Positions 35,760 through 53,094 of a DNA stretch of 64,000 nt are shown piece by piece. The stretch lies in assembly GCA_017626045.1 (NCBI GenBank), contig JAGAJP010000054.1, positions 9,281 to 73,280 on the forward strand. Direction: 5' to 3'. The notes beneath the pieces were generated by a model that was not told the origin of the DNA, searched no databases, and saw only the letters and a list, made by a program, of their open reading frames with translations. The first letter of the stretch is position 1. Each line of letters starts with the position of its first letter. The DNA comes from Muribaculaceae bacterium. GTDB taxonomy: Bacteria > Bacteroidota > Bacteroidia > Bacteroidales > Muribaculaceae. The position numbers and the translations under genes were made by a program.

Positions 35760-36131
35760 ATGAATTTACTGTTGGAAATAAGCAACGGAGATCTGGCCGT
35801 CACTGCCACGCTCACCGGTATCGGACTGGTGTTTGCGGCTTTGCTGATTGCTCGCCTGATTTCCCCTAAATCCTACTCGGTAAAGAAAGGCGAGACCTAT
35901 GAATGCGGTATCCCTACGCGAGGTGAGTCAATGATTCAGTTCAAGTCCGGTTACTATATCTTCGCCATCCTGTTTTTGATTTTCGACGTCGAGACGGTTT
36001 TCCTTTACCCCTGGGCTACTATCATGCGCTCTCTGGGTCCCTCCGGTCTTCTTTGCGTCGCTATTTTTATGTTTATTCTAATTTTAGGTCTGGCTTACGC
36101 CTGGCGGAAAGGAGCTCTTAAATGGCAGTGA
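35760..36131 (+). CDS. nuoA: NADH-quinone oxidoreductase subunit A
   Basis: 123 aa with 3 TM segments. YECG.. and ..[15 protein letters not shown].. are typical of NuoA/ND3. Confidence 0.92.
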
Positions 36132-36730
36132 ACATCAAGTCGATGAAGCGCGAAGACTTCAAAGACAACGAATACATCGACGCTCTGGTTGAGGAACTCA
36201 ACGCTACCGGTGCAAATGTGGCTGTCGGAAAACTCGACCAGCTTATCAACTGGGGTATCTCTAACTCCCTTTGGCCGCTTTGCTTCGGTACAAGCTGCTG
36301 CGCTATCGAATTCATGTGTCTCGGCGCTGCCCGTTATGACATGGCGCGTTTCGGTTTTGAAGTCGCCAGGAACTCTCCGCGACAGGCCGACTATATTATG
36401 GTGCAGGGTACTATCGTCCACAAGATGGCACCCGCTCTCGTGCGCCTGTATGAGCAGCTCGCCGAACCTAAGTATGTAATCGCCTGCGGCGGTTGCGCGG
36501 TAAGCGGCGGGCCCTTCAAGAAATCATATTGCGTTGTCGACGGTGTCGATAAGATTATCCCCGTCGACGTGTATATCCCCGGTTGCCCTCCACGACCCGA
36601 GGCTATGTTCTACGGACTTATGCAGCTGCAGCGCAAAATCAAGGTGCAGAAGTTCTTCGGCGGTGTCAACCGTCAGCAGAAAATTCAGGATTTCTTCCGT
36701 CAGCACCCGGAAGATGCCGGTGAGTATTAA
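36122..36730 (+). CDS. nuoB: NADH-quinone oxidoreductase subunit B
   Basis: N2 cluster ligand pattern: ..[10 protein letters not shown].., ..[10 protein letters not shown].. and ..PGCPPRPE.. Confidence 0.93.
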
Positions 36731-36762
36731 TTCTATCTCTGTCATCGATAATAACTTCTTAA

Positions 36763-50060: not shown

Positions 50061-51578
50061 ATGTTTTCTAATATTTTAATTTGGTTCGTGGTCATCCCCA
50101 TCCTTATGATGGCGGGTCTGGGCATCTGCCGCAACAGCAGTATGAATGCCATCCGCACAGTGATGACTGTTGGTAGTTCAGCACTGCTCGCCCTCGGAAT
50201 CTGGCTTACTTGCGACTTCCTTTGCCAGAGGGCTGCAGGAAATTCCGAGGAAATGCTTTATCTCGGCAGCTGGCTTTGGTACGCTCCGCTTAACATCCAT
50301 CTCGCCGTGGGAGTTGACGGCATATCTGTCCTTATGCTCATGCTGAGCTGTGTGATTGTTTTCGCCGGAACTTTCGCTTCTTGGAAAATCAATCCGCTCC
50401 CAAAGAATTTCTTCCTCTGGTTCTGCCTCCTCAGCACCGGTGTGTTCGGATTCTTTATCTCTATTGATATTTTCACGATGTTCATGTTCTATGAGGTGGC
50501 TCTTATCCCGATGTATCTTCTTATCGGCGTCTGGGGCACCGGACGTAAGGAATACAGCGCAATGAAGCTGACCCTTATGCTTATGGGCGGTTCCGCTTTC
50601 CTGATGCTCGGTCTTCTTGGCATTTTCTGGCATTCCGCTCCCGAGCTCTCGTCCTGCACATGGAATATTCTTGAAATTTCGCACAATTCCAACATTGACC
50701 CGAGTTGGCAGAGAATCCTCTTCTGTCTGACTTTTGTCGGATTCGGTGTACTTGGCGCTATGTTCCCGTTCCACACATGGAGCCCCGACGGTCACGCCTG
50801 CGCGCCGACTGCCGTATCGATGCTTCATGCCGGAGTACTTATGAAACTCGGTGGTTACGGCTGCTTCCGTATCGCGATTTTCCTCCTGCCTCAGGCTGCC
50901 AATGAACTGGCTTGGATATTCATTGTACTCACCGGCATATCTATCGTTTACGGAGCGTTCTCAGCCTGTGTTCAGACCGACCTCAAGTATATCAACGCAT
51001 ATTCCTCAGTGTCGCACTGCGGTATGGTGCTTTTCGCCATTCTGATGCTTAACACTACCGCGATGACAGGAGCTATTCTTCAGATGCTCTCCCACGGTCT
51101 GATGACGGCTCTCTTCTTCGCCCTTATCGGTATGATCTACGGACGTACCCACACTCGCGACATTCGCCAGATGGGTGGTCTCATGCGCATCATGCCTTAT
51201 CTTGGCGTATGCTACATGATTGCCGGTTTCGCTTCTCTCGGTCTGCCGGGTCTCTCCGGTTTCGTGGCTGAGATGACCATTTTCTTCGGCTCTTTCCAGG
51301 AGGCGGATACTTTCCATAGAGTGTTTGTCATCGCTGCGACTTGCTCGATTGTAATCACTGCGGTCTATATCCTGAGAGTCGTCGGAAAGCTCCTTCTCGG
51401 TCCCGTACAGGACGAGCATCACCTCACTCTTACCGATGCCACATGGTTTGAGCGTCTCAGCACTGTGACTCTCATCCTTTGCATAGCCGGTATCGGTTGC
51501 TTCCCCAACTGGATCAACGAGACAATACAGCACTCTTTCTCACCAATCATCGCTGCCATTCAGGCTGCGGCTCTCTAA
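50061..51578 (+). CDS. nuoM: NADH-quinone oxidoreductase subunit M
   Basis: Antiporter-like subunit. ..FYEVALIPMYLLIGVWG.. and ..FPFHTWSPDGHACAPTAVSMLHAGVLMKLG.. The start is taken as the ATG at 50061; the ORF track uses 49974. Confidence 0.92.
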   Translation: MFSNILIWFVVIPILMMAGLGICRNSSMNAIRTVMTVGSSALLALGIWLTCDFLCQRAAGNSEEMLYLGSWLWYAPLNIHLAVGVDGISVLMLMLSCVIVFAGTFASWKINPLPKNFFLWFCLLSTGVFGFFISIDIFTMFMFYEVALIPMYLLIGVWGTGRKEYSAMKLTLMLMGGSAFLMLGLLGIFWHSAPELSSCTWNILEISHNSNIDPSWQRILFCLTFVGFGVLGAMFPFHTWSPDGHACAPTAVSMLHAGVLMKLGGYGCFRIAIFLLPQAANELAWIFIVLTGISIVYGAFSACVQTDLKYINAYSSVSHCGMVLFAILMLNTTAMTGAILQMLSHGLMTALFFALIGMIYGRTHTRDIRQMGGLMRIMPYLGVCYMIAGFASLGLPGLSGFVAEMTIFFGSFQEADTFHRVFVIAATCSIVITAVYILRVVGKLLLGPVQDEHHLTLTDATWFERLSTVTLILCIAGIGCFPNWINETIQHSFSPIIAAIQAAAL

Positions 51579-51615
51579 TTAGTTCTTTACCTTCTTTTAA
51601 TCAAATCAGACAACA

Positions 51616-53094
51616 ATGGACTATTCACAATTTGGGACTATGATTCCCGAACTGATTGTATTGGGACTCTTCCTCGTGGTGTTTTTTATGGACACTTTCG
51701 GCGGAGAGGGGGTAAAGAAGATTTTGACCCCTACCACTACGATTCTGTTTCTCCTCGCTACGGTGGCAATATGGATCGTGCCTTCAAGCGCTGACCCCAT
51801 ATTTGGCGGAATGTATGTCAACGATTCTGCGTGCAAGGCGATAAAGTGTATTCTTAACCTCGGCGTTTTCCTCGTGTTGCTTCAGTCTTTCAAATGGGCT
51901 GACAGCCCCGAGATGTCCGCTCGGAAAGGTGAGTATTACGAACTGCTCTTCGTGACTCTCTTCGGTATGTATCTCATGATTTCTGCACGTCACTTCCTGC
52001 TTTTCGTCATTGGTCTCGAATCTGCGTCGCTTCCTATGGCTGCGATGATAGCATTCGATAAATTCCGTTACGAAAGCCATGAGGCAGGTATCAAATACAT
52101 CCTCACTGCAGTCTTCAGTTCTGCCGTGCTTATGATGGGTCTCAGTTTTGTATACGCATTCTCACTTGGAAGTCTATACTTCTACGACATTGCGTTCTCT
52201 CTCGTGCAGGGTGAGTCGAGTCTTCTTCTCTTCTTCGCTCTCGCTTTCGTGATGGCTGGTATAGGTTTCAAACTGTCGCTCGTTCCTTTCCACCTTTGGA
52301 CTGCCGATGTCTATCAGGGTGCTCCGACTCCGGTCACTTCTTACCTTTCAGTTATATCCAAAGGTTCTGCGGCTTTCGCTTTCCTGATTATCTTCACCCA
52401 GTGTTTCGGTCAGGCTTGGGATGCAGCATGGGAATGGATGCTCTACGCTTTGATTATCCTGACTATCACCGTTGGTAATCTTTTCGCGCTTCGCCAGAAG
52501 AACATGAAGCGATTCATGGCGTTTTCGTCGGTTTCGCAGGCCGGCTACATCATGCTTGGCATCATTGCCGGTAATGCTCTCGGCTTTGCCTCTCTGATGT
52601 TCTATATCATGGTTTATGTGGTCAGCAACCTTGGAGCATTCGCGGTAATACAGACAATTGAAGACAATACCGGAAAAATCAACATGGATGACTACAATGG
52701 TCTGCACAAGACCAATCCATGGCTGAGCGTGGCGATGACTCTCGCAATGTTCTCCCTTGCAGGTATTCCTCCGTTCGCCGGTTTCTTCAGCAAGATTCTT
52801 ATCTTTACCGGCGTGTGTGCGTCCAACTCGATGGCACTTTATATCCTTGTGCTCATCGCTCTCATCAATACAGTAATATCTCTGTACTACTATCTCTGTG
52901 TGGTGAAAGCAATGTGGATTTCTTCTGAAGAACCATGCATAGGAGAATTCAAGAGTACCGGTGTCGCTAAACTTGGTCTCGGAATCTGCCTCATCGGCAT
53001 TCTTCTGTTCGGCCTCGTAAGCCCGATCTATCAGTGGCTTGTTGACTCAGTGGCATTCTCCACTTGGGAACCGCTCGCCATTCTTGGACTCTGA
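51616..53094 (+). CDS. nuoN: NADH-quinone oxidoreductase subunit N
   Basis: 492 aa. ..GLESASLPMAAMIAF.. and ..FKLSLVPFHLWTADVYQGAPTPVTSYLSV.. are typical of NuoN/ND2. Confidence 0.92.
   Translation: MDYSQFGTMIPELIVLGLFLVVFFMDTFGGEGVKKILTPTTTILFLLATVAIWIVPSSADPIFGGMYVNDSACKAIKCILNLGVFLVLLQSFKWADSPEMSARKGEYYELLFVTLFGMYLMISARHFLLFVIGLESASLPMAAMIAFDKFRYESHEAGIKYILTAVFSSAVLMMGLSFVYAFSLGSLYFYDIAFSLVQGESSLLLFFALAFVMAGIGFKLSLVPFHLWTADVYQGAPTPVTSYLSVISKGSAAFAFLIIFTQCFGQAWDAAWEWMLYALIILTITVGNLFALRQKNMKRFMAFSSVSQAGYIMLGIIAGNALGFASLMFYIMVYVVSNLGAFAVIQTIEDNTGKINMDDYNGLHKTNPWLSVAMTLAMFSLAGIPPFAGFFSKILIFTGVCASNSMALYILVLIALINTVISLYYYLCVVKAMWISSEEPCIGEFKSTGVAKLGLGICLIGILLFGLVSPIYQWLVDSVAFSTWEPLAILGL

Follow-up and report, generated by a model that had tools for sequence, protein, structure and literature searches.

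The DNA analysed here, referred to as the window, is a stretch of 64,000 nucleotides (nt) from a Muribaculaceae bacterium (assembly GCA_017626045.1, contig JAGAJP010000054.1), in which a complete F1Fo ATP synthase operon lies inside the operon for an NDH-1-type, complex I-like enzyme. The block occupies positions 35760-53094, with all genes on the forward strand and in the order nuoA-B-CD-H, atpD-C-B-E-F-H-A-G, nuoI-J-K-L-M-N, according to the list of open reading frames (ORFs) and to Pfam and NCBIfam assignments. The identity of the genes and the conservation of their order in related genomes are near certain. Expression of the 18-ORF block as a single transcript is reasonably probable, judging from promoter motifs and spacing, and the statement as a whole, comprising the identity of the nested cluster, its conservation and its probable behaviour as one unit, is in our view likely to be correct.

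The nested block spans 17.3 kb and every one of its ORFs is intact (Table 1). A previous interpretation made from the letters of the window only (the sequence-only reading) had counted 19 genes, and the actual number of ORFs is 18, because nuoC and nuoD form one fused ORF. Its claims that the nuo cluster is interrupted exactly between nuoH and nuoI, and that all genes lie on the same strand with gaps of at most 92 nt, are confirmed by the Pfam and NCBIfam assignments and by the ORF coordinates, respectively. Intergenic distances in the window range from -10 to 92 nt, the maximum being that between nuoH and atpD, and in the Muribaculaceae loci described below the median spacing is 70 nt or less at each junction of the block. 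The spacer between nuoH and nuoI is filled in the window with ~7.0 kb of atp genes.

The nuo part encodes 11 subunits, NuoA, B, C, D, H, I, J, K, L, M and N (Pfam, NCBIfam), and no ORF for nuoE, nuoF or nuoG was found within 35760-53094 (ORF list, Pfam). Catalytic and ligand motifs, which had been described as intact in the ATP synthase, NuoB and NuoI, are so upon inspection: NuoB possesses the ligands of cluster N2 (a CC pair at residues 59-60, C125 and C155), and NuoI possesses those of N6a and N6b in two CxxCxxCxxxC motifs, at residues 67 and 110. NuoI also has a C-terminal low-complexity tail (from ~46950) rich in Ala, Pro, Lys and Glu; the whole protein has 217 amino acids (aa) in the window, and in 60 Muribaculaceae loci its length ranges over 164-265 aa (median 207), as opposed to 146-156 aa in five outgroup loci, in comparison with which the tail of the window's protein is extra. 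For the equivalent NUO complex of Bacteroides fragilis, NADH:quinone activity is absent and the electron donor has yet to be identified, and the nuo operon of that species is reported to be poorly expressed in rich medium (PMC7002350). It is plausible by homology that the nuo-encoded complex pumps protons, and to that extent its designation as a proton pump in the sequence-only reading can be retained; on the other hand, the complex is devoid of NuoEFG and its B. fragilis equivalent is devoid of NADH:quinone activity.

The atp part encodes all eight subunits of a bacterial F1Fo ATP synthase (alpha, beta, gamma, delta, epsilon, a, b and c; Pfam), and the NCBIfam models TIGR01039, TIGR00962, TIGR01146, TIGR01145, TIGR01144, TIGR01260 and TIGR01131 are matched over their cut-offs. 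Walker A motifs are present in the beta (GGAGVGKT) and alpha (GDRQIGKT) subunits, the Arg of subunit a is found in LCVRLFANMMGGH, and the Glu of subunit c in ALIEGVALF. N-type (alternate) F1Fo ATPases are encoded by operons of the form atpDCQRBEFAG, with the genes for beta and epsilon first and those for membrane subunits next. The block in the window opens in the same way; however, it contains a gene for the delta subunit and neither atpQ nor atpR, and its c subunit does not carry a Na+-binding signature. The alternate-ATPase models TIGR03305, TIGR03324, TIGR03323, TIGR03306, TIGR03322 and TIGR03321 all scored far under their cut-offs, and the N-type assignment was rejected, since the delta gene is present, the canonical F0F1 models pass and the alternate models fail. 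The Na+-binding signature of subunit c from Ilyobacter tartaricus is Q / E-S-T / Y; set at the motif level against the I. tartaricus sequence, the c subunit of the window lacks it. Coupling of the ATP synthase to H+ rather than Na+ is thus suggested by the motif, and the label of 'proton consumer' given to it earlier is supported at the motif level (no Na+ signature, canonical F0F1 models matched), from which we infer the ion specificity itself. The gene order beta-epsilon-a-c-b-delta-alpha-gamma has been documented for Bacteroides and Prevotella, where the atp operon is a separate locus, and the order in the window, given as that of Bacteroidota in the sequence-only reading, is identical to it (PMC5709465).

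In the atp part, one gene boundary calls for comment, that of atpB, whose likely start is the ATG at 41347, giving a signal-like N-terminus; the N-terminus of subunit a resembles a signal peptide (MTKKFAILFVLLSVLAFPFSAFS). The ORF is open from 41263 and there overlaps atpC, so that automatic callers may choose too early a start. Positions 41347-41850 encode an additional domain of ~150 aa ahead of the Pfam ATP-synt_A region, which is named PF28541 (DUF8433) in the precomputed annotation of a relative.

A NuoH scan of one genome per GTDB species identified 293 relatives, of which the loci of the best 80 were examined. Nearly all of these 80 are labelled Muribaculaceae, Sangeribacter, Muribaculum, Lepagella or uncultured Porphyromonadaceae/Bacteroidales, with a few metagenome-assembled genomes (MAGs) labelled Bacteroides sp.; the top match is a Sangeribacter MAG with 98% identity in NuoH, and identity among them reaches down to 81% for NuoH and to ~54% for the delta subunit. 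At the protein level, the best 120 homologues were all from Muribaculaceae. According to tblastn searches with the window's proteins, the order nuoABCDH-atpDCBEFHAG-nuoIJKL is present in every sufficiently long locus among the best 80, including those of the isolate Lepagella muris NM04_E33 and of the MAGs 'Bacteroidales bacterium GP3' and 'H10', and two more assemblies of another species exhibit the identical gene order. The exact NuoH sequence of the window is carried by 13 contigs, and atpD adjoins nuoH in the three that were shown, which come from three sequencing runs. Up to 79 additional genomes thus keep the order, as do separate assemblies of the window's own species. This excludes chance and misassembly, and the junctions, for which misassembly had been considered, are genuine.

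Outgroups were reached through representatives of NuoH at 50% identity, followed by two further protein searches; the sample comprises five loci, and NuoH identities between ~65% and 81% fall outside it. All five contain a contiguous nuoA-B-CD-H-I-J-K-L-M-N cluster without atp genes: one in an Alloprevotella genome, one on a contig whose NuoH is named by NCBI as Prevotella sp. CAG:755, one on a contig whose NuoH is named as Candidatus Caccomonas pullistercoris, and two in further Bacteroidales lineages, which with ~64% NuoH identity are the closest to Muribaculaceae. The nuo operons of B. fragilis, Prevotella and Alloprevotella share with the window the gene set (nuoA, B, fused CD, H-N, no nuoEFG), the common orientation and the tight spacing; what differs is that in the five outgroup loci nuoI follows nuoH after ~2-27 nt, whereas in the window the two genes are separated by the atp operon. 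One database protein (P0406) is a fusion of NuoH and NuoI. The representative at 50% identity closest to the NuoH of the window (P0121, from an ENA contig of 1812 nt) is a chimeric ORF, in which a MecA-like N-terminus (PF05389) is fused in frame to a Bacteroidales NuoH; it is probably a metagenome assembly artefact, and only its NuoH part was used. In B. fragilis, nuo comprises ten consecutive genes, BF638R_0841-0850, without atp (PMC7002350), in agreement with the statement in the sequence-only reading that nuo and atp are separate loci in Bacteroides. The adjacencies of nuoH with atpD and of atpG with nuoI, for which a survey of Bacteroidales had been proposed, are therefore found throughout the sampled Muribaculaceae and are absent from the five outgroup loci and from B. 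fragilis. Since all these relatives possess a contiguous nuo cluster without atp genes, the nesting looks like a derived trait of Muribaculaceae.

As to the origin of the arrangement, the atp and nuo genes are alike in GC content and in the GC content of third codon positions (GC3), and no mobile-element genes were found flanking the block, so that a recent horizontal acquisition of the atp genes has no support from composition or from flanking genes. The simplest reading would be that the atp operon already resident in the genome moved once, in an ancestor, into the spacer between nuoH and nuoI. Correlation of the divergence of nuo and atp proteins was too noisy to inform on their co-inheritance.

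The nesting is not novel, as it has been reported for the source lineage. Keyword searches of the literature returned no report of it; the prior report was found in the 2016 paper on the genomes of the family. According to the main text of Ormerod et al. 2016 (Microbiome 4:36, PMC4936053), 26/30 genomes of the family, then called S24-7 or 'Ca. Homeothermaceae' and corresponding to Muribaculaceae, have the ATP synthase integrated into their complex I locus; complex I of the family comprises 11/14 subunits, without NuoEFG, and genome H5 lacks both the ATP synthase and complex I. The novelty, which the sequence-only reading had left undecided, thus disappears, an outcome it had itself named. The locus of Ormerod et al. 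and that of the window belong to the same family, with the labels GP3 and H10 common to the genomes of that paper and to our matching loci, and in both F-type atp genes lie inside a cluster for an 11/14-subunit complex I without NuoEFG. The difference lies in the detail: the main text (supplementary Figure S4 aside) devotes one sentence to the integration, without the insertion point between nuoH and nuoI, the gene order or the layout of promoters and terminators, and without an outgroup comparison or intercistronic hairpins. The arrangement is therefore already known: both enzymes have textbook operons, and the nesting of the two is documented. What is added here are the precise insertion point, the contrast with outgroups, the statistics of promoters and terminators and a family of hairpins, the last of which is a new addition over the prior literature.

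Because the sigma-70 consensus is inapplicable to Bacteroidota (a scan for sigma-70 promoters and simple terminators was uninformative, with counts against shuffled sequences of 18 vs 21.4 and 19 vs 17.0), promoters were analysed with counts of the Bacteroidota -7 motif TAnnTTTG and with a position weight matrix (PWM). The only TAnnTTTG accompanied by a -33 TTTG in 35000-54000 is that of the nuoA promoter, which bears out the earlier observation of a sole -33/-7 promoter in the block. Among related loci, TAnnTTTG is found at -100 to -60 before nuoA in 68/68 cases; before atpD it occurs in 6% of loci, compared with a background of 6.5% per 195 nt, and before nuoI in 0/60 (last 200 nt scanned). 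The remaining internal genes have it in 0-7% of loci, with the exception of nuoB (30%), where the sites fall inside the coding sequence of nuoA. Since the PWM derives from 62 unique nuoA promoters of orthologous loci, its score expresses how closely a site resembles that promoter and not promoters generally; it reaches 52.8 bits at the nuoA promoter of the window, and its medians across loci are 39.8 bits for nuoA, -14.2 for atpD and -21.0 for nuoI, the values for the last two falling in the range of other internal genes. Between the -33 and -7 elements of nuoA there is a direct repeat, TTTTAAG-AAA-TTTTAAG (35660-35685), which is well conserved in the nuoA promoters of the family, as indicated by peaks of information content in the PWM, and which may be the binding site of a regulator.

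Upstream of this promoter, the gene for an alpha-2-macroglobulin-like protein ends with an intrinsic terminator (-27 kcal/mol, z = -6.6), which would isolate the nuo promoter from upstream transcription. The presence of a canonical terminator just ahead of nuoA indicates that the organism uses such signals. At the junctions inside the block, a hairpin with a U-rich tail was found in 0/79 loci between nuoH and atpD and in 0/60 between atpG and nuoI. The former spacer measures 28-156 nt across relatives (median 57) and the latter 10-247 nt in 60 loci (median 45). A simple scan indicated a weak stem with a T-rich tail at 46473-46491, which was rejected as a terminator, as it folds no better than shuffled sequences (z = -0.25) and is not conserved in relatives. 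The earlier statement that neither junction carries a stem followed by a U-tract is correct with regard to the U-tract; the spacer between nuoH and atpD does, however, carry a strong stem, with an A-rich tail. Downstream of nuoN, the region 53095-53230 folds at -46.1 kcal/mol (z = -5.55), and the hairpin with a weakly U-rich tail located there is the likely 3' end of the unit.

The stem in the nuoH-atpD spacer (hairpin 1: -17.1 kcal/mol, z = -3.6; covariance-model match 42.8 bits) is a member of a family with two sites in the window. In 15 loci of the window's clade, 9/11 of its stem pairs exhibit compensatory changes and 95.8% of cells are paired, compared with 30-53% in slid controls, and what follows it is the A-rich GGGACTAAATTAATAAC, with no U-tract. 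The covariance model of this spacer also matched the atpA-atpG spacer in relatives, and in the window the latter contains hairpin 2 (-17.5 kcal/mol, z = -3.0; covariance-model match 35.6 bits). Both share one design: the stem has 11 bp, the loop is of 8 nt and reads nnTGAaAC, and ACnAA follows on the 3' side. When the two sites are aligned jointly, 8/9 pairs change on both sides and 92.9% are paired. The family is limited to these two spacers in the clade of the window (about 15 related species). The two-site covariance model, with 25 training sites, detected no further copy in 1.52 Mb that include the whole window, on the grounds of which a dispersed REP-like repeat was rejected, and no Rfam family matches at the junction or anywhere in the window. 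Family-wide, 38/62 loci have some stable hairpin in the atpA-atpG spacer (median minimum free energy -19.8 kcal/mol).

The hairpins include G-U pairs, which would be unable to pair on the opposite strand, and this indicates an RNA structure on the forward strand and a transcribed nuoH-atpD spacer; their A-rich tails argue against intrinsic termination. Judging from these features, they probably act on the polycistronic mRNA, through stability of its segments, processing or binding of a factor, and not as terminators. Stabilising intercistronic hairpins occur in the puf operon of Rhodobacter and, as repetitive extragenic palindromic (REP) elements, in malEFG of E. coli. Similarly to these, the hairpins of the window are stable stem-loops in spacers, without a U-tract, and are placed where segments of mRNA may need differing abundance; they differ in that they are not dispersed repeats and in that they share the loop nnTGAaAC, whose conservation suggests sequence-specific recognition. 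One may speculate that a single 17.3-kb mRNA carries this operon-specific element, recognised by a dedicated RNA-binding protein or nuclease, and that the element would set the balance between nuoA-H, atpD-A and atpG-nuoN, in which case the nesting would be a regulated respiratory super-operon and not a frozen rearrangement; we consider this version distinctly unlikely. A small hairpin with a UUCG-like loop (GGCTTCGGTC) is located directly after the stop codon of atpE (42882-42897); its fold in the window is a weak one (-4.8 kcal/mol, z = -1.1), and GGC-NNNN-GCC-like stems are found in relatives.

In the mechanism that we propose, transcription of the nuo operon with the canonical Bacteroidales atp operon in its nuoH-nuoI spacer would start at the one conserved -33/-7 promoter before nuoA, the block would be insulated upstream by the intrinsic terminator and ended by the strong hairpin after nuoN, and the atp genes and nuoI-N would be expressed by read-through. 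The H+-translocating complex and the H+-driven ATP synthase would then be co-regulated and, in the clade of the window, the two related hairpins after nuoH and after atpA would act on the polycistronic mRNA. The single family-wide promoter, the lack of motif enrichment before atpD and nuoI, the short spacers and the absence of hairpins with U-tails together favour one unit of ~17.3 kb, and the earlier proposal that nuoI-N depend on transcription through the atp block gains from the promoter statistics, from spacers as short as 28 and 10 nt and from the lack of U-tailed hairpins, the transcript itself being what we infer from them.

Several points weigh against this reading. It relies on spacing and on the absence of motifs, and the motif test addresses promoters of the -33/-7 type used by the primary sigma factor, so that promoters of extracytoplasmic function (ECF) or other sigma factors would escape it, as would those situated more than 200-400 nt inside nuoH or atpG; the PWM, being derived from orthologous nuoA promoters, gauges resemblance to that promoter. 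The spacers of up to 156 and 247 nt in some species could hold signals of their own, TAnnTTTG matches without a -33 TTTG exist inside atpG of the window (46108 and 46236), and the stable hairpin that follows nuoH could stop part of the transcription although it lacks a U-tract. These points are consistent with three or more independent units (nuoA-H, atpD-G and nuoI-N) driven by unrecognised internal promoters, the nesting being an accident of position: the same long spacers and matches within atpG would accommodate such promoters, the conserved hairpin right after nuoH in the clade of the window could mark an mRNA 3' end, cells usually need more ATP synthase, and need it more constitutively, than they need a respiratory complex, and nuo of B. 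fragilis is reported to be poorly expressed in rich medium (PMC7002350). Nevertheless, such an organization appears unlikely, given that the -7 motif is at background frequency (6%) before atpD and missing before nuoI (0/60) while present before nuoA in 68/68 loci, that certain species have junction spacers of no more than 28 and 10 nt, that a U-tailed hairpin is seen at neither junction in any locus (0/79, 0/60), that the hairpin after nuoH is trailed by an A-rich tract, and that order and same-strand orientation are preserved in about 80 species.

Co-transcription without benefit is a different matter. The arrangement may be a selectively neutral frozen accident, which persists because excision of the atp genes would sever nuoI-N from their promoter; this is possible, if somewhat doubtful. 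It would fit a nesting seen once, in one family, with separate loci in the sampled sister lineages, and junction sequences that are poorly conserved beyond one clade, and the joint loss in genome H5, as reported in the main text of Ormerod et al. (PMC4936053), is expected of a single locus whether adaptive or not. The computed evidence does not discriminate neutrality from benefit, and the family-level conservation (NuoH down to 81%, delta ~54%) and the short spacers are compatible with selection on operon integrity. As only a handful of outgroup lineages were sampled, the nesting might occur elsewhere in Bacteroidales. Finally, it is extremely improbable that an assembly chimera produced the junctions or that the atp block is a recently acquired island for a second, N-type ATPase. 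Read-level evidence is lacking for the window itself, and the N-type operon likewise begins with beta and epsilon; however, these junctions recur in the genomes of up to 79 further species, one of them from an isolate, and in separate sequencing runs of the window's own species, the delta subunit is present, the canonical F0F1 equivalogs pass where all alternate-ATPase models fail, GC and GC3 equal those of the flanking nuo genes, and mobile-element genes do not flank the block.

Table 1. Coordinates of genes and signals in and around the nested nuo-atp block of the window
Feature	Position	Strand	Evidence and remarks
Intrinsic terminator of alpha-2-macroglobulin-like gene	35591-35635	+	hairpin 35591-35628, U7 tract 35629-35635
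Bacteroidota-type promoter	35655-35685	+	-33 TTTG 35655-35658, 19-nt spacer, -7 TAccTTTG 35678-35685
nuoA	35760-36131	+	Pfam Oxidored_q4
nuoB	36122-36730	+	Pfam Oxidored_q6
nuoCD (fused)	36763-38391	+	Pfam Complex1_30kDa and Complex1_49kDa; NuoD-type NCBIfam models match
nuoH	38411-39487	+	Pfam NADHdh
Covarying hairpin 1, nuoH-atpD spacer	39499-39536	+	stem 39499-39528, 8-nt loop with TGA.AC, then GGGACTAAATT
atpD	39580-41079	+	Pfam; NCBIfam F0F1 equivalog 772.5 (cut-off 462.85)
atpC	41100-41336	+	Pfam; short epsilon of 78 aa, TIGR01216 62.9, slightly under cut-off (67.25)
atpB	41347-42588	+	Pfam, NCBIfam; likely start (ORF open from 41263)
atpE	42639-42881	+	Pfam, NCBIfam
atpF	42912-43406	+	Pfam, NCBIfam
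atpH	43411-43956	+	Pfam, NCBIfam
atpA	43958-45532	+	Pfam; NCBIfam F0F1 equivalog 748.3 (cut-off 484.45)
Covarying hairpin 2, atpA-atpG spacer	45537-45576	+	stem 45539-45568, loop CCTGAAAA; same family as hairpin 1
atpG	45592-46482	+	Pfam; NCBIfam gamma 232.8 (cut-off 194.45)
atpG-nuoI junction spacer	46483-46529	+	47 nt, AT-rich, no conserved promoter or terminator feature
nuoI	46530-47183	+	Pfam; NCBIfam NuoI scores under cut-off, both 4Fe-4S motifs present
nuoJ	47211-47735	+	Pfam
nuoK	47754-48065	+	Pfam
nuoL	48079-50028	+	Pfam
nuoM	50058-51578	+	Pfam; likely start 50058 (ORF open from 49974)
nuoN	51616-53094	+	Pfam
Terminal hairpin after nuoN (likely 3' end)	53164-53196	+	15-bp perfect stem, 3-nt loop; tail CACTTGTTCGG, weakly U-rich

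The surroundings of the block contain genes of other kinds. The upstream neighbour (29807-35572) encodes the bacterial alpha-2-macroglobulin-like protein, of 1921 aa, with A2M, MG2 and bMG10 domains. Downstream of the operon there are genes for a protein of 224 aa that matches no Pfam family and for a peptidase of the M6 (immune inhibitor A) type (region 54049-55812); M6 peptidases are present in 20/30 genomes of the family according to the main text of Ormerod et al. 2016 (PMC4936053). Elsewhere in the window, positions 12001-14000 have a GC content of 0.40-0.43, compared with ~0.50 in the rest, and this segment may be foreign or variable DNA.

Muribaculaceae are among the most abundant bacteria of the mouse gut and are common in other mammals, and their energy metabolism has barely been studied. 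As a system the nesting is of a known kind, and the remaining interest lies in whether the block is one mRNA and in the role of the operon-specific hairpins. If there is indeed one promoter, the level of ATP synthase would depend on how an anaerobic respiratory complex is regulated, and a single step could remove both the complex I-like enzyme and the F-type ATP synthase, the only one reported, as in genome H5 described in the main text of Ormerod et al. The locus thereby offers a convenient handle on the role of the enigmatic 11-subunit complex.

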